DNA of 64,000 nucleotides from Sphaerodactylus townsendi (lineage: Eukaryota), in assembly GCF_021028975.2 (NCBI RefSeq), contig NC_059430.1:39680001-39744000 (forward strand), written 5' to 3'. The position numbers were made by a program, and so were the translations under genes. A model generated the notes under the pieces. That model was given only the letters and a program-made list of their open reading frames with translations, did not search any database and was not told the DNA's origin. This document shows positions 7,075 to 38,132 of the stretch, piece after piece; position 1 is the first letter of the stretch, and each line of letters opens with the position of its first letter.

Positions 7075-10072
7075 ATGATGTTGATGATGTTATCCATTCA
7101 GTTGTTCTCGATCCTTAGTGACCCGATATGCAAGCTCTTTCCACATTTTTCTATTAAGTACTGCTTCCTTCAGCTGGTTGTTGCTCATGCCTGTATCAGC
7201 TTTTATGGTATCTAGCCATCGTGTTCTTTGGTGTCCAGGTCTTCTCCTGCCATTGACAAGTCCAAGCATTATAGATGTTTCTAGCGAATTTGATCGCATC
7301 ACATGACCAAAGTATGTAAGTCTGAGCCTGGTTATTTTCCCTTCTAGTGAGGTATCTGGTTTTATGAGGCTCAAGACTTCTGCATTTGTTACCCTAGCTG
7401 TCCATGGTATGCGCAGTAGTTTTCACCAACACCACAACTTGAAAGCGTCTATTCTTCTTCTTTCAGCTTTCTTTATAGTCCAGCTTTCATAACCAAAGAT
7501 GGTTATTTTTTTAAAAATTTATTTTTCAAACTTATATACCGCCCAACCCCCGAAGGGCTAATGAGGAAGATGATGGCTTGGACTAGCCTGTGCTTGGTTT
7601 TGATGCTGATGTCTCCACTTTTCCAAATTTTATTCATGCTCAGCATGGCGCTACGTCCTTATGCTATTCTCCGCTTTATCTCAGGAGTTACTTCTCCGTT
7701 ACAGTCAATTTTTGAGCCTAGGAAGATGAAGTCTTGGACGTACTCAATGTCCTTATTGTCAATGCTAATTTGGGGCCGATCTATGCTAGCTGTTGTCATG
7801 ATGTTTGTTTTTTTCATATTGAGATGGAGGCCCATTTTTTCGCTTTCAGTTTTGATCTTTACTATCAACTGTCTCAGATTGCTCTCGGTCTCTGCAAGCA
7901 GTGTTGTGTCATCTGCCAAGTAATGCTTGAAGATTGTTGATGTTTCTGCCACCAATTTTCACTCCTATTTTTGAGTCTTCTAGCTCCGATTTTCGTATGA
8001 TCACTTCCAGCATAGAGATTGAACAAGAGTAGGGTAAGAGGAATGCAGGCCCCTTGTCGGACACCTTTTGCCTAAATTTTGGAACCACAGTCTGTGTCCC
8101 CATGTGCCATTCCCTCACTGTGTGGCTTCCTGGTTGGTGTAAGGACAAGCTGTATCCAGCTTGATCAGATGTGGTGACACACCTAGTTCTTGCAGGGCTT
8201 ATGCCATAGCTTATCATGCCTCTACACAGTCAAATGCCTTGCAGTAATCAAGCTGAAGCACATGTAGGTGTTCTTCACCGAGTATTCTTTCGAGGCTTTC
8301 TCCATGATCCATCGCTAAAGTTTGCAATGTGATATGGCAAGTGCCACGCGGCCACGTTGAAAGCCTCCGCCTTTCGTACATCAGGGAATTCTGTGCTTTG
8401 ATGATTGACAATCTTTAGCCTTTCTTGTATTATCTTGAGGAAAAAATCTTGCTTTGCATGTGCAGGATGAGGGGCTATTGTCGCGATAATTGGAACAAAA
8501 CCACGGTAACTTCCTCACCTTTCTTTTAGTAAAGCTGGATGAAGACTGATCTTTTCCAGTCCTGGAGGCTACTCAGTGGATTCCCATACTGGCATTCTGG
8601 CACAGGGCCATGATGGCTTTTAACTGGTATGCGGGCTGCATTAACTTCTGCTCGGGATATTGTCTTCATGCCAGGTGCTTTGTGTTTTAGCTAGTTGCTT
8701 CATCGCCTAACTGACTTCTGACTCCAGGATTGGTGGCTCCCAAATCCAGGTTGCTCATGCCTCTCATGTGTGTTGGAACCGATTTCTATGCCCTGCAAGG
8801 AATAGGTAACTCTTCTGTGTATTCTTTCCACCTTTCCTTGATGCTAGGGTGGTCGAATGGTCATTCCTTTCCCTTTCTTGTCCTTGATGTGTTTCCTTTG
8901 ACGGGCTACAAGTGAAAAGGTTTTCGTGGTTCTTCTTGATCTGTGAGAAGAGGCTCCTTGTGTAGCCTTCCAGAAGAGTCTTCTTCAAGTTTGCCCTTTT
9001 ACAAGCGCTCTCATTCCAGTCTGCTTCTTTATCTTTCCTTGTTGCCTCAGCTGAAAAATCAGCATTCAGCTTTCACACTTCACTCCTTTGTTGCCAGCTG
9101 CTTTTGCTGCTCTTCTATTGTCTGCAATTTTGATGGTTTGTTCTGACAACCAGTATTGTCATTTTTCTGGCTTCTTGACATGCTTGTGGGCTGTTCCCAT
9201 GATTGTTTTCTGTATTTCATCCCACAGCTCCTTCAGGAGTTTCCTTTCTCTTGCTGTGTATTGAGTAAGCTCCAAAATCTATTTTGTCACCTCAATAGTA
9301 TATGAAAGAGGGACTTTGGATGTTTCAAATTTTCTTATTGCTGCGCCTTTTTTGATGCTACAGAATCTGACCCTAATCTTAGCTGCAAGAAGTTCGTGGT
9401 CTGAACCACAGTCAGCCCTGGAAAGATTTTTGCCGCCATGATCGAGCAGAATGAAGTTGATCTGATTACGGTGGAGTCCATAGGGGAATTCCATGAGTAC
9501 AGTCGGCGTTTTGGCTGCATGAAAAATGTGTTTGTTATCCTGAGCCGATTTTCTTGGCAGAACTGTACCAAACGATCGCCAGCTTCATTTCTTTCTCCAA
9601 GCCCGAAACGGCCTACAACATCTGCCTCTGACTGGTTTCCAACTTTGGAGTTGAAATCGCCCATGATGTAGACAACATCCTTCTTTGGAAGTTCGTTCAG
9701 AGTTTTTTGGACTTCAGCATAGAAGTCTTCAACTACCTCCTCATCGGCATCCGTCGTCAGAGCGTAGACCTGCATAATGGAGATGTTCACTGGTTTACTG
9801 TGCATACGGATGGCCATGATGCGATTGTTGGTTGCTTTGAAACTTTCTAGTGCCTTTGAGGTCTTCTTGTTTGTGATAAAAGCCACTCCATTCCTTCTGA
9901 TGTCATCATGTTCGGAATAAAATACTGTGAAATCATCTGATTGAAAATATCCATTCCCAGTCCAGTGTAGTTCACTGATTCCGAGAATATCAATATGAAG
10001 TCTTGTCATTTCACGTTTTACAATGTCGAGTTTGCCCAAATTCATGACACGCACATTCCAAGTTGCCAAGGC
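7075..10072 (-). mobile_element. RTE-clade (BovB-like) LINE, degenerate
   Basis: APE endonuclease ORF 9335-10069 (ATWNVR, LGISE, MGDFNSKVG); RT fragments (DYCKAFDCV, ADDTTL, FIFLGSKI); C-terminus (YFGHVMR...RWLDTIK); short-repeat tail near 7075-7090. Confidence 0.92.
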
Positions 10073-10260
10073 ATGAAATTATACAAATGGAATAATGGAA
10101 TGATGTTCAGTGAATTATGTAGATATTCCATTGTTCCCTAGAGGGGAATCAATCCAAATCTTTAAGGTAGTTGACACAGACACTGTATGAAGCACATGAG
10201 CAGGGCAAGGAGAGAGATGCAGTCTTCTTAAAGGAGAGGAACCCAATGACCTGTTTCCAA

Positions 10261-11143
10261 CAGTAGCATAGCACCCACAGGGACATGTGGGGTCACATGT
10301 TCTGGGCGGAGAACATTTGGGTCATGTGGGGGGTGGAAAATCACCCCCACATCCTTTCTCCCTCCCCCCTGCTGCGCCCCAGACAGGGGCTCCTAGCCAG
10401 GCCCAGCAAAGGGGAAGGTTCAGCCGGCGCTCCCAGGGCTGGGAGTGGCATGGCTTGCACTGTGAAGGGTGCGCTAGCTGGGGAGAGGGCCTTCCCAGTT
10501 GGGCGCGGCAGGCAGGGAGGCGGCGCCGGGACTGGCCTCTCCCCAGTCAGCGTGCCCTCCGCAGTACCAGCCACACCGCCTCTGGTCCTAGGTGTGCCAG
10601 CTGAGCCTTCTCTTGCGGGGCCAGCTGGCCCTGGTGCCACGTCCTTGCCTGGCACGCCCAAATGGGAAGAAGCACTGAGGCCTGGCCTGCAGGGCTGCGC
10701 CTTGGTGGCTGGCCCCGTAGAAGGCTCAGCAGGCGCACCCAGGGCTGGGAGTGGCATGGCCAGCGCTGCGGAGGGTTCACTGGCTGGGAGGAAGGCCTTC
10801 CCATTTGGGCACGCCAGGCAGGGAGGCGTCTCTGTGGCCGGCCTCTCCCTGGCCAGCATGCCCTCAGCAGAACCAGGCACACTGCTCCCAGGTCAGAACA
10901 GGGAAGGAGGGGTGTGCCACATGGGGGGCAATTTTGCAAAAAAAAAAAAAAAACCCCACGCCTCCCCTGCACTGACTTGGCTCATCTGAGGAGATGGCGC
11001 CCCTCAGCCCCACCTCGCCAGGCAGCCCGGGACCACTGCTGGCTCAGGTAACTGGGGCGCGGGGAGCGCAGCTACCATGGGGTGCGGGGGCACTGGTGGT
11101 GTCCATTTTGCCCCAGATGCCATTTCCCCCCACTAAGGCTCTG
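10261..11143. mobile_element. hAT-type non-autonomous element with an internal ~305-bp tandem duplication
   Basis: 8-bp TSD GTTTCCAA (10253-10260 and 11144-11151), CAG...CTG termini, and repeated blocks near 10415-10570 and 10720-10875. Confidence 0.75.
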
Positions 11144-12481: not shown

Positions 12482-13306
12482 CAGGGCTGTTGATGTTGAA
12501 CTCCTTTGTTACAAGGACCAGATACAACACAAATGTGATTTGTTTGGGCTGGGCCCTGGGTGGGTGGGGGTTCCCTTGGCTGACGAGCCCGCAGTAGGCT
12601 TGCCAGCCCAGATCAGCACTGGGGGGAAGGGAGGAGGTGGATGTCTCAGGTGGCTTGCTAGCCCAAATTGAAAGAGGGGTGGCTCATCATCACTGATTGG
12701 GAGTCGGGTGGTTACCTGAACTGGCTACTCCGCAGTGGGCTCACCAGGCCAGGCCAGGCCAGATCAGGAGCAGGGTGGGGTATGTGTGTGTACTGGCGTA
12801 TCCACAGCAAAGTGCAGTGGCTGCCTGGACAGGTGAGTCTGCAGCAGGCTCATCAGCCTGGTACTGAATGGTAGTGAATAGATGGTCAACATGGGGGTAG
12901 GGGGCAATGGTGGGATTCAGCAGGTTCGCACCACTTTGGCAGAACTGGTTGTTAAAATGTGCTTGTAAACAACCAGTTGTTAAATTATTTGAATCCTACC
13001 ACCAGAACCGGTTGTTAAATTATTTGAATCTCACCACTGGTTGGGGGGGCGGGGGGGGGGTTGCTGCTGCTGCTGCTGAGCTCGCAGCAGGCTCATCAGC
13101 CCAGGTTGGCACCCAGGGAGGTGACTCACGTGTCACCAGCACAGAATGGGAGCAGCATGGGGTGGATGCCTGGACGAGCGAGCCGCCATTAGGCTCTCCA
13201 GGAAAGATCAAAGGGCGAGGGGGTTTCCCTCCATTATCTCTTGGGCCTGATAAGCCCTCTCAAGGTACCGATCTGGCTCCCCCCAGCCGCGTGTTTAATA
13301 GCCCTG
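12482..13306. mobile_element. hAT-type element with a nested MITE (12905-13039)
   Basis: CAGGG...CCCTG ends; a related 5' end recurs at 40343. The nested element has CA.TGGTGGGATTCA / TGAATCTCACCACTG ends and a 7/8 TSD (GTAGGGGG / GTTGGGGG). Confidence 0.6.
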
Positions 13307-13417
13307 TTCTAATGCATTCCTACCACTTGTGTCCAGCAAAGGAAAAGTCGTCATAGGAACCTGAAGTGTAGGCTCTCTGTGCTGGTTACGGTTTTTGCTT
13401 CTTCATCTACCTCTTTG

Positions 13418-13593
13418 AGTTTCCATAGCGTAAGAGGGCATACCCCGGAAGTGAAGCAGCCATGTCGCCGAGTGACCTCCGGAGCTGAACTGGGAGCGGG
13501 AAGAGGTGGGGTCGGAGCCCCTGAAGCGTGACACAGCCTCCGTGAAGGGGTCAGAAGCCGCTGTCGGTTTTTTGTCCTTCGTCCCTCTTACAG
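13418..13593 (+). promoter_or_regulatory. MIEF1: MIEF1 promoter and non-coding exon 1
   Basis: ETS/GABP motif CCGGAAGTG at 13445-13453, local CpG enrichment, and a strong donor CAG|GTAAG at 13593/13594. It lies upstream of the exon-2 acceptor (AG at 14336-14337). The TSS cannot be fixed exactly. Confidence 0.65.
13462..13488 (+). CDS. Short upstream ORF in the MIEF1 leader (MSPSDLRS*)
   Basis: gccATG TCG CCG AGT GAC CTC CGG AGC TGA, just downstream of the ETS motif. It is real only if the TSS lies upstream of 13462. Confidence 0.35.
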   Translation: MSPSDLRS

Positions 13594-14361
13594 GTAAGCC
13601 TCTTGAGAGCCTCAGAAAGACTGTTGAACTGCAGTGCTTGGAAAGGGGCAGATCTGGCTCAGGCTGCTTAATCACAGGGGTTCCCTTTCGATGACTCCGA
13701 GCAAGATTCAACATGTAAGGGTGGTATAGCGTAAATCAGGAGTGTCAGATATGTAACCCAGGGAGGGGGCTTATCGGCCTGCAACCCAGCTGGGACAACA
13801 TCCCACGCCTTATTCTTGATCTTGCTGTAGGCCAGTCTAGTCTGCCACCCCACCCTGCTGTGGACTCCCCAGGCAGCCAGCCCCACTTCTGATCTGTGCT
13901 TTTGATCCACCTCTCCCCTGCGTGAGTCTTGGCTGACAAGCCTGCTGTGCGTTCGCTAGTTGAGTAGCCATCCCCCCCTTGTGATCTGTGATAGCTAGCC
14001 AGCTTTGGGTGCACCAGCTGAGGTAGCAACACACACACACACTCACCTGTACAACCACCTCCCCTAGAGCCAAGACTGCTGTGAGCTCACCAGCAGTGGC
14101 TCCCCCCGACACATACTGCTGATCACCTCCCCCAATGCCCTTCTGGAGTGGCAAGACCACTGCCACCTGATGTTTCCCATATGAGCCCTGTAAAAAATTG
14201 GGTGGGATAAAAACGCAAAAATAAAATAATAAAAACTATTATTCTATCAGTTACTGTTGTTCCTACCCTAGAAGCCATAAATGAAATATATCACTGAAAG
14301 GAATTGTGTTGCTTTTCTTTTGTCTATGTACCGACAGTTTATCCTTGTCCGTTCATCCTCC

Positions 14362-14574
14362 ATGGCAGCGTGGACCCGTGAAGCAGTGCTGAACCTCTAT
14401 CGCACTTTGCTGCGTCAGGGGCGTGGTCTGCGCTATACTGATCGTGATTTCTACTTGACCTCGATCCGGAAAGAGTTCCGCAAGAACCAGTATCTTGAGC
14501 GGCTTGAAGATAAGGAGAGGCAACTGGAGAAGGGCCAGGCTTTCCTACATACCAAACTTGGCGGCTTGGTTTAG
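14362..14574 (+). CDS. MIEF1: AltMIEF1 / MIEF1 upstream-ORF microprotein (MIEF1-MP), 70-aa LYR-motif mitoribosome assembly factor
   Basis: [70 protein letters not shown]. It has the LYR motif plus the downstream F (EFRKN). Length (70 aa) and sequence closely match human AltMIEF1 as recalled. It lies in exon 2 after the acceptor ...accgacag| (exon starts 14338). Confidence 0.95.
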
Positions 14575-14849
14575 AAATTTCCCCTCCCATTCTTCTGACT
14601 CCATTTTCTCAAGTCTTTTGAACACTTGTTCTAGATGGTTAATATTGGCTAGTTGCTGCAAATCTGAAAAAAGAAACCTATATGTTTTCTGTATACATTC
14701 CTGGGAATATTCCTCTGTCCTCATCACAAATGCATTAGGTTTCAGGTGCGTTATGTACAGCTATGGACTGCTGTTTTAATATTTCATTGCCTTGATTGGT
14801 AATTGCCAAAACAGTCCTAAAATTCAATTTTGAGAGGGTGAAGGTAGGA

Positions 14850-15150
14850 GCTCTATGGTGCTGAGTGGTAAGTTGCAGTACTTTAATCAAAGTTCTGCTC
14901 ACAACCTGAGTTCAATCTTGACAGAGGTCAGTTTCAAGTAGTTGGCTCAAGGTTGACTCTGCCTGCCATCTTTCCGAGGTGGTTAAAATGAGTACCCAGC
15001 TTTCTCTGTGTAAAGTGTAGATGATGGGGAAAGGCAATAGCAAACCACCTCGTAAACATAGTCTGCTTAGTAAATGTTGTAATGTGACATCACCCCATGG
15101 GTCACTAATGATCCAGTGCTTGCACAGGGGACTGTGCACTTTGCCTTTTG
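14850..15150 (+). mobile_element. Sauria/Squam-type SINE in a MIEF1 intron
   Basis: tRNA-like head plus the characteristic core tcaaggttgactctgcc...ccgaggtgg..aaaatgagtacccagc. Confidence 0.65.
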
Positions 15151-15720
15151 GCTAAGATTCACAGGAGCAGGGACAGCTTTGATGACATTGCAAAAATGGG
15201 CTTGAGCATTTTGACAGGCAGAACATGCACACAGAAGCTGGAGAAACTCCTATTTAGATTTGGTGACTTTTAGTAGACACAGGAGGATTCGGTCTCAGAA
15301 CAGGGTTGACTAATTTCTATGGTGATCCCCACCTACAGCGTTGAAATCAGTTTGGCATGATTAAGTCACATGTAAGAGCAGGGATTTACCTGTTTTCAGT
15401 AGTATGAGGGCACTATAATGTGCAAGGTAAGAGGTCCCGGGTGTGGGAAAACCGGATTCAAATCTCCATTCAGCCATGACATTCGCTAAGTGGCCCTGGG
15501 CATTTTTGCCTAAGCTGTCCACATTTTGCTGACAGTGCATGATAGAAGAACTGAAAAACATGTCTTAAGTGTTGTTGAATGAATAATTTATAATAATATG
15601 TTTCTTAGTAATGATCTACGAGAAGAAGAAAATCTAACTCAGTAAATATTGAGTGGCATAAGGGGAAAGTTAAAGGTGTTAACAGTTTTGGTTTTTTTCT
15701 CCATCTCTTGTAAAGGAGCA

Positions 15721-15864
15721 ATGGCAGGCGCTGGAGAGCGCAAAGGCAAAAAGGATGACAATGGCATTGGCACGGCCATTGATTTTGTCCTGTCCAATGC
15801 TCGACTTGTCCTGGGCGTGGGAGGTGCTGCCATGCTGGGGATCGCCACTTTGGCTGTCAAAAGG
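15721..15864 (+). CDS. MIEF1: MIEF1/MiD51 coding exon 1 (N-terminus and outer-membrane TM segment)
   Basis: MAGAGERKGKKDDNGIGTAIDFVLSNARLVLGVGGAAMLGIATLAVKR; acceptor ...tgtaaag| (exon starts 15716); donor |gtaaga at 15865; 144 nt. Confidence 0.96.
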
Positions 15865-15961: not shown

Positions 15962-16139
15962 ATGTATGATCGGGCAATCAGTGCCCCAACCAGCCCCACA
16001 CGCTTGAGCCAGTCAGGAAAAAAAAGCTGGGAGGAGCCAAGCTGGCTTGGGTCGTCACGGTTACTGAATGAAGATATGAAGAGTAACCTTAGCCGTTCCC
16101 TGCAGACTCTTCCTACAGATCCTTCAGCATTTGAAATGG
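15962..16139 (+). CDS. MIEF1: MIEF1/MiD51 coding exon 2
   Basis: MYDRAISAPTSPTRLSQSGKKSWEEP...; acceptor cccttcag|, donor |gtgaga; 178 nt, ends in phase 1. Confidence 0.95.
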
Positions 16140-17696
16140 GTGAGAAGTAGCCTTGAACTAATTAATTTTGCCTTTAAAAAAAACAACTCCATTCTAAGTC
16201 CACCCTAATTATAAAAGTTTTTAAATGTTTATTTCATGCTGAATTACTAAAATGTAAGAGGCCAGAGACTTAGTCATTCAGACCCTTTTCCCAGAGAAGA
16301 AAGGAAAAAGACTTGGTTTAGAAATTTCCCCTTCTATACATTGGCCTCCTTTTTCTCAAGCCTTTGATCATCTGTTCTAGATGGTAAATATTGGCGAGTT
16401 GCTGCAAATCTGAAAAAATAAATCTATAGGTTATCTGTGTGCATTCCTGGGAATATTTGATCATTGCTCATAAACCTATCCTTCTCTAACAGTGGGGTTA
16501 TCCATCTCCCTCTATCTTGATTAAATAAAAACCTTTTAATTCAGGCAACAGTAGGGCATTTAATCTGGCAGCCAAAAAATATTACAGTATCTGCAAATAG
16601 TCAAAGATTTCCAGTATGTCAGAAGGGTTACTGAAGGTTGTAATCCATTATAGGATAGAGAACACACTCTTCTATCTTGCAAAATTGTCCTTCTGAAATT
16701 AACTTTAATAACTTTAACCCTTGTCAACTCTACTTTGTAATTCTCCATAGATAATGAAAAGGCAGAAGTAAAGCCTAACTGTTTCAGTCTTTGATTAAGC
16801 AGCTTCTTCCAGTTATTCTTGATGTCCCCATGGGCCAAGGGGTCCCTTTTGCCTGGTGTGAAATTCAGCCCAGTTAATCACACAAAGCAGAGAAAAGCCA
16901 AGTTGTGTTTTATTTTCTGCATAGATAGGACAACAGCATACGTGTCACGAGGGAATTACTTCCAGATCTTGTGTAATTTGATTCAAATTTATATTGTGCT
17001 TATATATCTTTCTTCAGGGGCTGACTGCCAGCCTCTTCTGACCTATGTGATTCTGCAGATCCACCTCCCCATATATCCTCCCTGCTTTCCCAGGGGTAAC
17101 ATCATGCTAATAATGTAGTGTTCTCTGAGTTCCCTCTTGGTGCCAGCAGCTGATCCTTGACTTCGCAAAATGCAAAACATTTCCCTTTATCTTAGAAATG
17201 TTTTAGAACTAGAAAGTACAATCTAAGGGTTAGACCACTTAGCAACATGTATATATTTTGTTGGGTCAAAATCTTGCAACGTACAACAACTTGTTCTTTA
17301 AGATGAAGAAGGAAATAGACCCTTCCATTCACAGCTTTGTCTGAAATGGGTCACTAGTTATACTAATGGTTAATCTATTGTTTTGAAAGCAGTCTGTCAA
17401 CCTGCCTGACAAAAGTTGTTGTGAGGATAAAAAAGAGGAGGGAAGATCCGTGTATATCAACCTAACCTCCTTGAATGAATGGTGGGATAAAAATGCAATG
17501 ATACATAGTGGCTCTTCTGAGCACTATTCTGTAATGTGGCAACTGCCCCATGTTTCAGGACAATGGGTAGGTCCTTAATTGATAGGGCTTGTAGTTTTCC
17601 ACAGTGGAAGTGTTTTCCACAGTGTAACATTCAAATAGCAGGCTTCATGGCAGGGAAAGACATAAATCTAGAGCTTCTGGGTGATGGTGCTTGTGA

Positions 17697-18173
<477 letters not shown>

Positions 18174-19134: not shown

Positions 19135-19941
<807 letters not shown>

Positions 19942-22900: not shown

Positions 22901-23080
22901 AAATAACAGCAAGTGAAAGGAGCTTAGGTACCCAGGATACTTAAGATAACCGAATGAGATCTTTTACCTTGTCTCAAGCCCTAATGCACTTTAAGGGGGA
23001 TTAGGGGAAGGAAATCTAGTGCATGGTCTGTGACAGTATGTGGAAATTCTGAAATAAAATAACTTTCCACAACACTATGG
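19942..23080 (+). other. MIEF1: Probable long MIEF1 3' UTR ending at a polyadenylation signal
   Basis: About 3.1 kb with little recognisable repeat sequence. AATAAA at 23053-23058 is followed by a GT/T-rich downstream element (ggctgtgtttta). Confidence 0.5.
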
Positions 23081-23892: not shown

Positions 23893-24130
23893 GAAGAAAA
23901 GAGTTGGTTTTCATACCCCACTTTTCTCTCCCTTGAAGGAGTCTCCAAGCTGCTAAAAATCACCTTCCTTTCCCCACAGCAGACACCTTGTGAGGTAGGT
24001 AGGGCTGAGAGAGTTCTGAGAGAACTGTGACTATCTCAAGGTCACCCAGCAGACTTCACGAGGAGGAGAAGGGAAACAAATGTGGTTCTCCAGAACAGAG
24101 TCCGCCACTCTTGACCACTACTCCATTCTA
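23893..24130 (-). mobile_element. tRNA-derived SINE
   Basis: Closely similar copy at 31030-31330 (cacagcagacaccttgtgaggta..ctgagagag..aactgtgact..caaggtcacccagca). Confidence 0.65.
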
Positions 24131-27059: not shown

Positions 27060-27612
27060 GCCTCATTTTAAGGCCCTTTGCGGCTTGGGGCCCTCATACT
27101 TGCGGGACAATCTTACCCCATATGTCCCGAATAGGCCGTTGCGCTCCTTATCAGCGGAGCTGCTGGAAGTCCCCGGTCCTTCAGTGATGCGCTGGCCTCT
27201 CCCCGGGCCAGGGCCTTTACAGCCCTGGCCCCTGCCTGGTGGAACGCTCTCCCACCAGCTGTTCGGGCCCTGCGGGACCTTGGTGAGTTCCGCAGGGCCT
27301 GTAAAACTGAGCTGTTCCGCCAGGCTTTTGGAGAGGCTGGCCGCGGATTCGCTACCCCCTGGTGAGGCCCCTGCTGTATGTTGTAATCTTTGGCAATGCC
27401 TCATATTGGTTCCATCTCTTGGCAGTGCCGCCCCTCCTGGCCTTGGGCCCGGGCACCACCCATATGGGATTTAAGCTGCTTTTTGTATGCTGCTATTGAT
27501 TTTAAGGGTTGTAATTATGTTTTAATTGTTGTTAGATATTACGTGTTGTAAACCGCCTAGAGCCCTTCGGGGATGAGGCGGTCTACGAAATCTAAATAAA
27601 TAAATAAATAAT
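27060..27612 (+). mobile_element. L2-clade LINE 3' fragment
   Basis: ORF2 C-terminal-like GPSYLRDNLTPYVPNRPLRS; 3' stem-loop ccgcc..gagccc..gggatgaggcgg; (TAAA)n tail. Confidence 0.75.
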
Positions 27613-27624
27613 AATAACAACAAC

Positions 27625-28603
27625 TACATCTGGAAGACTAAAAAAAGAAATAGAAGGATTAATTCTCGCTGCTCAAGAACAAGCAATTAGAGCAAATGCA
27701 ATAGAAACAAAAATCGTTAAAACATCTAACAATGCCAAATGCAGATTGTGTACTGAATTGGATGAAACTGTGGATCACATACTCAGCTCATGCAAGAAGA
27801 TCGCGCAGTCTGATTATAAATTGCGGCATAATTCAGTTGCCAAAATGATTCATTGGAATTTATGTAAAAATTATGGTTTTCCCACACCCAAGAACTGGTG
27901 GGAACATAACACCGAAAAAGTGATCGAAAATCAGCAAGCCAAAATATTACGGGACTTTAGAATTCAAACAGATAAAGTACTGGCGCACAACACACCAGAC
28001 ATTACCATCATCGAGAACAATAGACTGGATTATTGACGTTGCAATACCCAATGGCATCCGGGTCGAAGAAAAACAACTAGAAAAAATTACAAAATATCAA
28101 GATTTAAAAATTGAACTGCAGCCAGAGGTGGGATCCAACCAGTTCTCACCACTTCTCTAGAAGTGGTTACTAATTTTTCCTGAGTGCCGAGAAAGGGTTA
28201 CTAAAGCAACCTCCGTGCCCAATAGGGACTGGAGGTGCGTGTGTGCGGCGACGCCACTGTTTGAATCCCACCACTGACTGCAGCGTCTATGGCAGAAACC
28301 AGCAGCAGTGATCCCAGAGGTGATCGGCGCACTGGGTGCTGTCCCAAAATCCCTGGGACAGTACTTGCAACAACTTAACATCAATAAAATCACTGTCTGC
28401 CAAATGCAGAAAGCTGCTCTACTCGGCTCTGCAAACAGTTTACGCCGATACATCACGTCCTCCTAAGTTCCAGGGTGGAACTCGAAGTGGATAGAAGGCC
28501 AACACCAACCAGTGATCTGGCGGTTGTGATACAATGTGTTTGTTGTTTTTGTCAATAATAATAATAGTAATAATAGTAATAATAATGATAATAATAATAA
28601 TAA
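27625..28603 (+). mobile_element. R4/Dong-type LINE 3' fragment (REL endonuclease), interrupted by a hAT MITE
   Basis: EGLILAAQEQAIR, CCHC finger CRLC...HILSSC, RHNSVAK, PDITII...DVAIP...KYQDL; flanked by (TAA)n-type repeats. Confidence 0.85.
28123..28276. mobile_element. hAT MITE nested in the R4/Dong LINE
   Basis: TIRs CAG.GGTGGGAT / ATCCCACCACTG; perfect 8-bp TSD ACTGCAGC. Confidence 0.85.
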
Positions 28604-35333: not shown

Positions 35334-35354
35334 ATGGCCGTGCAGGGGTGGTAG
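35334..35354 (+). CDS. ATF4 uORF1 (MAVQGW*)
   Basis: Perfect Kozak GCCGCCACCATGG followed by GCC GTG CAG GGG TGG TAG; same position as the reinitiation-promoting uORF1 of vertebrate ATF4. Confidence 0.85.
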   Translation: MAVQGW

Positions 35355-35431
35355 TGCACGCGGCGGCATCGGCCATTGCAGAGGCGCAGCAACAGCGGCC
35401 GCGGCCTCGGCACCTCCCGGCACCTGCAACC

Positions 35432-36896
35432 ATGGCGTGAGTATTGGGCGAGGGGCCGGGGACACGATACGGATTGGAGGCTGGGTCGCTTTATTCCCGG
35501 GACCTGGAAGAGGGGGGGACCCATATGAAACAAATAGTTGAGGAACAGAAGGGTTTGGGGGGGGGGGGGGCTGTTTGGATGTCTGTCTCCCATATAAGGG
35601 GTGGGATGGGAGAAGGGTGGGTGGTATTTTCAGCTTGGGAGTGGATCGCTAGTCTCTCAATGGGAAGATCTTGTAGGAAAGGAAGGGAGAAGAGAAGGGG
35701 GAATGGAGTCCCTGGGAGAGCTGCCCGGGTGGAGTATGTGGGAGAGACTATATTCGTTGAAAATGAGCGCCATTTAATGAGCTTTGGGGCTCCGTGGGGT
35801 CATTAGAGAGCCGTTAACGCCTATAAGAATCCCCTTGGGAGGCAGCCTTTCTGACGCAAGTAGAGTCAAAGTCTCTGCACAAGGAGGCACAGACTGCCAC
35901 GGAGGCAAACATGGTGGGGATCCTGATTTCTGTCTCGATGGGGTTAATTAGTCTCTGGAGTGTGGGGGTTTGTCTGTCATGCCTTTGTAGAAAGAATATC
36001 CGTTCCTCGATTGCTGATTGTGAATACGTATATACATATGGGAGTTACAGTACAGTAAACCTTTATTTGTATGATGATGACAGAAAAAGGGAAAAACTTT
36101 GTTATACAACAATGGGTATATTAATAAGAGCATAAAATGCATAAAATAATAAACATAGATTACATTAAAAACGTTACTAGTGATTCTGTATTGTTATCTG
36201 GTTGTGAATTCAAACTATTTGCCACCTCTTAATGTTTCTTTTGGGGTGGACTGCAGACTGCCAGACTGCAGAATACCAAGGCGAGTCTTGAGTAACCTTG
36301 GAGAAAACGTGGCAGGACACAAAATGGCGGCTTATTTATAGGGTGGGGACCGGCTCAGCAGGCTGATCCTGAAATGGCTGCAGCTGTCGTTGACGCCAGT
36401 GAATGCGTGAATCAGACCAGACAGGGCGGTGGGTGGAGCGGTAACTGGTTTTGACCAAATATGGTCATAAGGAACTTTAGTAGACTGCCACAAAGAAGGA
36501 TATGCGTGACAAATCCTAGTTGGCGCTGTTGGACATTTTGATGGCATTCAAAAGATTTCTGAATTTGAAGAGGATACAATAGTAGTTCAAAAGAAGCAGG
36601 ACTGCAGTAGTGTCATGCTGTTTAGTAAAATGTGAAATATAAAGTAATTCCCACAGTAGAGATGCCTCGTTTAAATCCAGTGGTCATATTTTTAATGACA
36701 AACCTCTTGTTTCCATTTTTTCAGGTTTTTCAAGGCACCACACAGCAGCTTTGCTGTAATCAAGAAAGAGACCATCTACGTGTCTATTCTTTTTGACCAC
36801 AGAGTACTAAAGCTTGGCAAAAATGAGCCTCTCAAACACAGAGATGATGCTGGGGGACTTTTTGTCCCCCTTCAACCAGCCGTGTTTGGTGGCTGA
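35432..36896 (+). CDS. ATF4 uORF2 (58 aa, spliced 35432-35436 + 36725-36896; overlaps the ATF4 start out of frame)
   Basis: accATGGC|gtgagt donor and ttttcag| acceptor. Spliced product is MAFFKAPHSSFAVIKKETIYVSILFDHRVLKLGKNEPLKHRDDAGGLFVPLQPAVFGG*. The TGA at 36894-36896 lies past the ATF4 AUG at 36823. Confidence 0.88.
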
Positions 36897-37042
36897 TGAA
36901 GAAAGTCTGGGACTCCTAGATGACTACCTGGAGGTGGCCAAGAACCTCGGTTCGCATGGGTTCTCCAGCAACAAGGCTAAAGTGGGATACTCCAATTGGC
37001 TGACTGTGGATAGTTTGAACGATGCCACAGACAACAGCCAGG
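36823..37042 (+). CDS. ATF4: ATF4 coding exon 1
   Basis: MSLSNTEMMLGDFLSPFNQPCLVADEESLGLLDDYLEVAK..., the typical ATF4 N-terminus; donor G|gtaaga at 37043. Confidence 0.95.
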
Positions 37043-37284
37043 GTAAGATAGAGATGTAATCACAAATTATGAGTTGTGGTAATACAGGGTGGCAGTTTCT
37101 TAGGAAAAAACTTAGGAGTGGCAACATTAACTATCAAGATTAGAATTGATATGATTAGCTGTAAATGCTCAAGACTATATCAAGCATCTACAAGGAGGGG
37201 AAAGGCAATTAAGAATCAAAATAGTGTTGTTTTTTATTAGACATAGAAAACTGAATTTTATTGGCTATTTTTCTTCCTTGACAG

Positions 37285-38132
37285 AGGATGCCTTCTCTGG
37301 CATGGATTGGATGGTGGAGAAGATGGATCTGAAAGAGTTTGACTTTGATACACTGTTAAGTATTGATGACCTTGAAGCCACCGTCTTCCCAGATGAACTC
37401 ACAGCCACGTTGGAAGATACGTGTGAACCATTTGACCCTTCCATCCCAGAAAGTCCCAACAAAGAAACTCCACTGACAGAAGAACCAGTTATACAATCCC
37501 CCACAACCCCCCCTGGGGCAGACCAGGTGGCTCCACTAACTCCTTTGTTGCCATTTCCACTTTCCCCAGAGTCACTGATTTCCCCTGCAGACCATTCTTT
37601 TAGCTTAGAACTAGGCAGTGAAGTGGATGTTCTTGAAGGAGACAGGAAAACTGAAGCCCAAATTGTTCTAGTGGTAATTCCCAAGTGTGAGAAAGAGGAA
37701 GAAGTCCATTCTGACAATGACAGTGGCATAGGCATGAGCCCATCTTACTTGGGGACACCCCAGCAAAGTCCTACAACTTCCATTAGTTCCCTCAGTGATG
37801 GCCAGTCAGTTATAGCTTTGCATAACAGTTATGTGCGTACCAAGCCTTATGATATTCCTGCAGAAAAGGTAGTGTCCCCAAAGGTGAAGGGAGAAAAACG
37901 AATAGATAAGAAACTGAAGAAGATGGAGCAAAATAAAACAGCAGCTACACGCTATCGGCAGAAAAAAAGAGCAGAGCAGGAAGCTTTATCAGGAGAGTGC
38001 AGTGAACTGGAACAGAAGAATGAGACCCTGAGGAAGAAAGCAGATTCCTTAAGTAAAGAAATTCAGTATTTGAAAGATCTGATGGAAGAGGTCCGTAAGG
38101 CCAAGAATAAAAAAGTTAAAGTCCCAGAATAA
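37285..38132 (+). CDS. ATF4: ATF4 coding exon 2 (bZIP transcription factor)
   Basis: EDAFSGMDWMVEKMDL, degron DSGIGMS, basic region KKLKKMEQNKTAATRYRQKKR and leucine zipper ...LSKEIQYLKDLMEEV. Total is 220+848=1068 nt = 355 aa. Confidence 0.97.

Follow-up and report, generated by a model that had tools for sequence, protein, structure and literature searches.

The closest described system to the locus reported here is the MIURF-MIEF1 gene of human and mouse, which encodes a LYR microprotein (AltMIEF1, also called altMiD51, L0R8F8 or MIEF1-MP; PDB 5ool_v and 9e9c_v) upstream of MiD51. Human MIEF1 was described as a candidate bicistronic mRNA whose upstream ORF (uORF) product carries a LYR domain (PMC4383229), and the microprotein was reported to be conserved from human to zebrafish and to be co-expressed with MiD51 (PMC5703645). 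According to PMC6283296, the human uORF lies in exon 2 and the main coding sequence in exons 3-6, with a spacer of 98 nt; the microprotein is 2.6-5.7 fold more abundant than MiD51, and frameshifting the uORF raises MiD51 levels. Five AUG uORFs have been listed for the human leader (PMC9825577), a scanning-complex peak was seen inside the long uORF (PMC7619398), and the repression exerted by the uORF was described as sequence-dependent (PMC7530721). At the protein level, L0R8F8 bridges MALSU1 and mt-ACP (PMC7312649), and human data place the MALSU1 binding on mitoribosomal large-subunit intermediates (10.1101/2021.03.29.437532, PMC7312649). The MIURF-MIEF1 gene is also treated in 10.1101/2025.07.07.663426 and PMC12190854. 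The LYRM superfamily to which such proteins are assigned is marked by a LYR triplet and a conserved downstream Phe (LYR-F; PMC11293456).

We analyzed a window of 64,000 nucleotides from the gecko Sphaerodactylus townsendi; gene features are given on the + strand. Taken as a whole, the evidence makes it likely that the window holds the gecko MIURF-MIEF1 orthologue, with an intact LYR microprotein ORF and a MiD51 ORF that would be translated from one spliced mRNA by leaky scanning. The microprotein ORF (AltMIEF1/MIURF/L0R8F8) occupies 14362-14574 and encodes 70 aa followed by TAG, with LYR at residues 12-14 and a Phe at position 39. It scored 35.8 bits against Pfam Complex1_LYR (PF05347), for which the curated cut-off is 24.8, and it matched both the human AltMIEF1 chain (PDB 5ool_v, E 5.7e-28) and the solved mouse AltMIEF1 chain (E 7.9e-31). 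The match to LYRM4 (E 0.009) was far weaker than those to the L0R8F8 chains over the full 70 aa. Both LYRM features are present, namely L12-Y13-R14 near the N-terminus, which is invariant in our alignment A2, and the downstream F39, which is invariant in the 50 full-length cores described below. A predicted structure placed helices at residues 6-20, 28-41 and 48-65 with low confidence (mean pLDDT 59.9, pTM 0.31). Searches with this model, by Foldseek (0 matches at E<=0.001) and by VIA-align (none at Z>=8), are uninformative on the fold either way. Judged by its sequence, we regard 14362-14574 as, with near certainty, encoding the gecko AltMIEF1 orthologue as a functional protein. By orthology to the human protein, the gecko microprotein is predicted to be imported into the matrix, to bind mt-ACP via LYR-F and to bind MALSU1 on late mitoribosomal large-subunit intermediates. 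Two in-frame extensions of the ORF, to 97 aa (ATG 14281) and 82 aa (ATG 14326), were rejected, as both ATGs lie 5' of the acceptor at 14338 and are probably intronic.

Downstream, MiD51 is encoded by four exons: 15716-15864, which carries the AUG at 15721; 15962-16139, with AG/GT ends and an open frame; 17788-18050, with AG/GT ends and PF21297; and 19135-19941, which runs to the stop codon and matches MiD51 in the PDB. When joined, these exons gave a protein of 463 aa with a single terminal stop. The last-exon protein matched MiD51 with E 4e-165 vs 2e-74 for MiD49, which identifies the downstream ORF, from its sequence, as an intact MiD51 and not MiD49, on the same strand as the microprotein ORF. 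Recruitment of Drp1 by the gecko MiD51 is predicted by orthology. The only AATAAA between the MiD51 stop and position 24000 is at 23053; this is a candidate poly(A) signal that would give a 3' UTR of ∼3.1 kb. The identification as AltMIEF1 5' of MiD51, made in the preliminary description, is thus borne out by the Pfam, PDB and homologue matches and by the intact 463-aa MiD51, and the human roles given there (mt-ACP/MALSU1 binding, and Drp1 recruitment by MiD51) are supported.

The gecko locus shares with human and mouse MIURF-MIEF1 a 70-aa LYR ORF that opens shortly after exon 2 begins, a 463-aa MiD51 in four coding exons with its AUG a few bases into exon 3, additional leader AUG uORFs (five in human, up to five predicted in the gecko) and a pyrimidine at -3 of the microprotein AUG. 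It differs from human in the predicted spacer, which is 176 nt with three weak uAUGs as opposed to 98 nt, in the -3 base itself (T in the gecko, C in human), and in a 147-nt local duplicate of the 3' end of the uORF in a downstream intron. Its microprotein is also like the AltMIEF1/MIDUO entries annotated for reptiles, birds and amphibians, with identities of up to 91%. As a conserved protein-coding uORF that would damp its main ORF, it further resembles SLC35A4/STREMI, PYURF-PIGY, ASDURF-ASNSD1 and ATF4-type control (PMC13303939, PMC4383229). However, the proteins of the first three are unrelated to the gecko microprotein, and the inhibitory uORF of ATF4 overlaps the main AUG whereas the gecko microprotein ORF ends before that of MiD51. 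The preliminary description had called the system known in mammals and easily missed by gene pipelines. Neither statement is supported: annotated copies of the protein exist in reptiles, birds and amphibians alike, its conservation to zebrafish has been published (PMC5703645), and the exact gecko sequence is present in NCBI, UniRef and nr. The gecko arrangement is therefore already known, already annotated in many reptiles, and an ordinary member of its kind.

The 147-nt duplicate comprises 14565-14711 (+), which covers the last 10 nt of the uORF and part of the spacer, and 16312-16457 (+), which lies in the intron between the second and third MiD51 coding exons. The two copies are identical in 126 of 147 columns (86%), with an alignment score of 187 vs a shuffled maximum of 30. 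Because the duplicate begins inside codons for conserved C-terminal residues, the exon copy is the likely source and the intron copy the derived one. The intron copy has AATAAA at 16417 where the exon copy has AAGAAA. A role as an H/ACA snoRNA or other structured RNA was rejected, since no Rfam family matched at the gathering score (best E 3.3) and fold z-scores ranged from +0.03 to +1.40 on both strands. A minus-strand coding piece was rejected as well (open for 59 codons in copy 1, frameshifted in copy 2), as was a common repeat, there being no third copy within the 64-kb window. Around the duplicate no clear target-site duplication was seen. On sequence grounds, it is probably an old and inert local duplication.

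To assess conservation of the microprotein, all 76 candidates retrieved by the homologue search were accepted as homologues; they came from lizards, snakes, turtles, crocodilians, birds, amphibians and mammals, and most carry the names AltMIEF1, MIDUO or MIEF1 upstream ORF protein. LYR was kept in 75 and F39 in 74 of the 76. With the query included (77 sequences), 50 could be used as full-length cores from the conserved Met, the other 27 being partial, without a start or of a different length. All 50 cores were 70 aa long and aligned to the gecko query without gaps at 69-91% identity, with 28 invariant positions. These values were compared with neutral drift simulations of the gecko DNA at assumed distances of 0.3, 0.6 and 1.0 substitutions per site. 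Mean identity fell to 55% (maximum 77%), 34% and 20%, respectively, and start, frame and stop remained intact in 202, 23 and 4 of 5000 runs. Protein-level identity and fixed length are thus far beyond the neutral simulation, which indicates that purifying selection acts on the ORF; its absence had been named beforehand as an observation that would refute the bicistronic reading. Internal Met was scarce in the alignment (2 columns vs 7.75 simulated, P 0.01). Under the same simulation Ile was about equally scarce (5 columns vs 11.3, P 0.015), so avoidance of Met is not demonstrated. A metagenome scan with alignment A2 returned 288 pattern matches, of which 0 were confirmed. In one bird model (P0060) Val replaces the conserved start Met (HPSPVAAWSR), which may reflect a sequencing error or a non-AUG start.

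The start contexts were reproduced as first described: the AUG of the 70-codon ORF at 14362 is flanked by T at -3 and G at +4 and is the sole ATG in any frame within the 213 nt of that ORF, and the MiD51 AUG at 15721 has a strong context with G at both -3 and +4. This layout had been put forward as suited to leaky scanning. As a route to MiD51 it is plausible, and vertebrates have kept the weak -3 base, but the ATG-free argument weighs little: given a Met-free protein, out-of-frame ATGs are expected to be absent by chance with P = 0.75 under uniform synonymous codons and P = 0.83 under MiD51 codon usage. We consequently rejected the lack of ATGs as a sign of design. The path to MiD51 is also less simple than had been suggested, as the leader has up to four other uAUGs (13462, 14635, 14682 and 14730). 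The first opens an 8-codon uORF1 (13462-13488; G at -3, T at +4), which is part of the mRNA only if transcription starts 5' of it. The other three lie 3' of the uORF stop and 5' of the exon-2 donor with the best score, and all of their frames stop before the MiD51 AUG. They form a 5-codon uORF at 14635-14652 (T at -3, G at +4) and an 18-codon uORF in weak context at 14682-14738, whose stop is shared by the weak ATG at 14730 and lies 12 nt 5' of the MiD51 AUG in the predicted mRNA.

For the homologues, the -3 base was inferred from the residue preceding Met in N-extended gene models, assuming that its codon lies in the same exon. Such models were available for 37 of the 76 tetrapod homologues, in which this residue was Pro (33), Leu (2), Ser (1) or Ala (1, Xenopus). 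On this reading, 35 of 37 have a pyrimidine at -3, one is ambiguous (Ser) and one has a purine (Ala), in a tally that is built on gene-model extensions, is bird-heavy and contains related sequences. All five N-extended teleost models have Leu before Met, again implying a pyrimidine. Every tetrapod homologue that includes the start has Ala as residue 2, and 12 of 12 teleost models have Gly, so +4 would be G throughout. A leaky start context therefore appears, from these sequences, to be conserved from teleosts to mammals. The literature passages searched do not state the conservation of the -3 base, which Fig. 2 and the supplements of Andreev 2015 may show.

These data favor, with a modest lead over even chances, leaky scanning as the way in which MiD51 is mainly reached. 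Scanning ribosomes would meet the short exon-1 uORF first and then resume scanning; the majority would initiate at the microprotein AUG, with its weak -3 and good +4 base. A smaller share would bypass both this AUG and the spacer uORFs, three in number, short and weak, before initiating at the MiD51 AUG in its strong context. The microprotein would then outweigh MiD51 as a product and damp it. Queuing might slow leak-through to MiD51, and reinitiation after uORF1 may add stress sensitivity. From orthology, the microprotein would enter the matrix and bridge mt-ACP (via LYR-F) and MALSU1 on late mitoribosomal large-subunit intermediates, while MiD51 would recruit Drp1.

The same bicistronic mRNA could instead deliver MiD51 mainly by reinitiation, either delayed after the 8-codon uORF1, so that the microprotein AUG is skipped at low ternary complex as in ATF4, or after the 70-codon ORF itself. 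We rate this as unlikely. In its favor, the predicted leader places uORF1, which is short and has G at -3, 130 nt 5' of the microprotein AUG. On the other hand, uORF1 may lie outside the gecko mRNA, depending on the transcription start, and a conserved weak -3 base would be unnecessary. Reinitiation after long uORFs is, moreover, generally poor. The human data point both ways. Two AUG uORFs with footprints precede the microprotein in the human leader (PMC9825577), human MIEF1 is moderately resistant to eIF2 repression (PMC4383229), and a shortened human uORF gave more MiD51 (PMC6283296); the authors of that knockout study read their result as increased reinitiation. TCP-seq, however, places scanning complexes inside the human uORF (PMC7619398), which speaks against reinitiation.

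Both routes presuppose that the two ORFs share a transcript. The probable first leader exon spans 13445-13593, with 13445 as a provisional 5' end; it carries the CCGGAAGT motif, coincides with a CpG peak (o/e 0.73 over 13400-13599) and ends at a donor (CAG/GTAAGC) that matches 8 of 9 consensus positions. Exon 2 begins at 14338 and is predicted to end at 14745, before the donor CAG/GTGCGT at 14746, which leaves the 176 nt between the uORF stop and the MiD51 AUG. This donor was picked by a crude consensus score (8 of 9) from among alternatives at 14638, 14799, 14844 and 14868; the rival at 14638 scores 6 of 9, equal to the true MiD51 donor at 16140, and splicing from it would leave the MiD51 AUG overlapped by an ORF of 65 codons. 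The acceptor at 14338 is used by P0078, a UniRef entry for this species named 'Mief1 upstream protein', which matches the window letter for letter in three AG/GT-bounded pieces (12882-12896, 13555-13593 and 14338-14571). Its residues 6-18 map to 13555-13593 and join 14338 across the junction 13593-14338. Its 26-residue N-terminal extension from 12882 is probably a gene-prediction artefact. The tail of exon 1 is in frame with the microprotein and has no stop back to about 13543. At the start of this exon, at 13445-13473 and on the CpG peak, the CCGGAAGT motif comes first and then a GCCATG motif that supplies the uORF1 start; the two resemble ETS and YY1 sites.

It is very probable, on this predicted exon structure, that both ORFs are carried by one bicistronic mRNA as the main form, with a predicted splice from the uORF exon to 15716. 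An alternative that we consider improbable is that MiD51 is made mainly from an isoform that skips exon 2, and the microprotein mainly from a short mRNA of its own. The strong exon-1 donor and the separate acceptor of exon 3 would permit this, and the human transcript NM_001394030.1 has the microprotein as its main protein (PMC9825577). It is opposed by the lack of a canonical poly(A) signal: neither AATAAA nor ATTAAA occurs in 14575-15715, from the uORF to the MiD51 exon, which in 1.1 kb could also be due to chance. Published human co-expression from one transcript (PMC5703645, PMC13303939) speaks against it too, as does the gene order kept in teleosts. Among 41 long MiD51 relatives found in the best 8000 candidates, 12 are teleost models with a LYR ORF directly 5' of MiD51, which implies that the gene order is old. 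N-extended MiD51 forms that would read the exon 2-exon 3 junction were sought in this search, and the 41 matches included no reptile form.

The same 12 teleost models are annotated as fusions, and fusions or extensions were reported in about 10% of sequences of this and three other LYRM subfamilies (PMC11293456), so that the LYR ORF might be taken for the N-terminal domain of a fused LYR-MiD51 protein. We consider this very improbable and rejected it, as the teleost linkers vary in length (2-14 aa) and sequence, as gene-prediction joins would, and the five in-frame GT sites inside the gecko ORF score just 4-6 of 9. In addition, 50 of 50 full-length cores end at residue 70, and the two human proteins were found in different compartments (PMC6283296). 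The fused models (P0083, P0084, P0087-P0091, P0098, P0099 and P0104-P0106) are likely gene-prediction artefacts and serve as an annotation warning. It is next to impossible that this leader ORF arose by chance, or has decayed, and yields no protein, given that tetrapods have kept its length, start, stop and LYR-F to a degree well past neutral drift.

The surroundings of the gene were also inspected. An ATF4-like bZIP gene lies 3' of MIEF1 at 35334-38132 (+), in what we take to be the human neighbor order. Its leader is of the classic type: uORF1, at 35334, has 6 codons, and uORF2, which begins at 35432, has 58 codons, continues across the intron and overlaps the main AUG in a different frame. 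A LINE-type retrotransposon fragment with an endonuclease domain was found at 9335-10078 (-), and further LINE-type fragments were judged by eye at 7090-7923 and 27608-28036. GC-rich direct and inverted repeats 5' of the promoter (10414-10885, 12567-13203 and 13928-13959) include a 166-nt pair at 81% and a family of 32-42 nt in 5-7 copies; they are probably small mobile elements.

As to the gene itself, the present analysis is a gecko confirmation of a published vertebrate arrangement, to which the comparative conservation of the start context is a small addition. The conserved leaky start offers a handle on how ribosomes reach MiD51, a point on which the human literature is split between leaky scanning, queuing and reinitiation. 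A more far-reaching idea, which we put forward tentatively and think rather doubtful, is that the weak start of the microprotein, with its pyrimidine at -3 and a +4 G retained through the change of residue 2 from Ala to Gly, has been a selected valve since the split of bony fish and tetrapods, that together with the short first uORF it forms an ATF4-like stress switch from the microprotein to MiD51 upon eIF2 phosphorylation, and that the gecko adds three spacer uORFs as a damper. If true, this stress switch would trade production of a mitoribosome assembly factor for that of a fission receptor.
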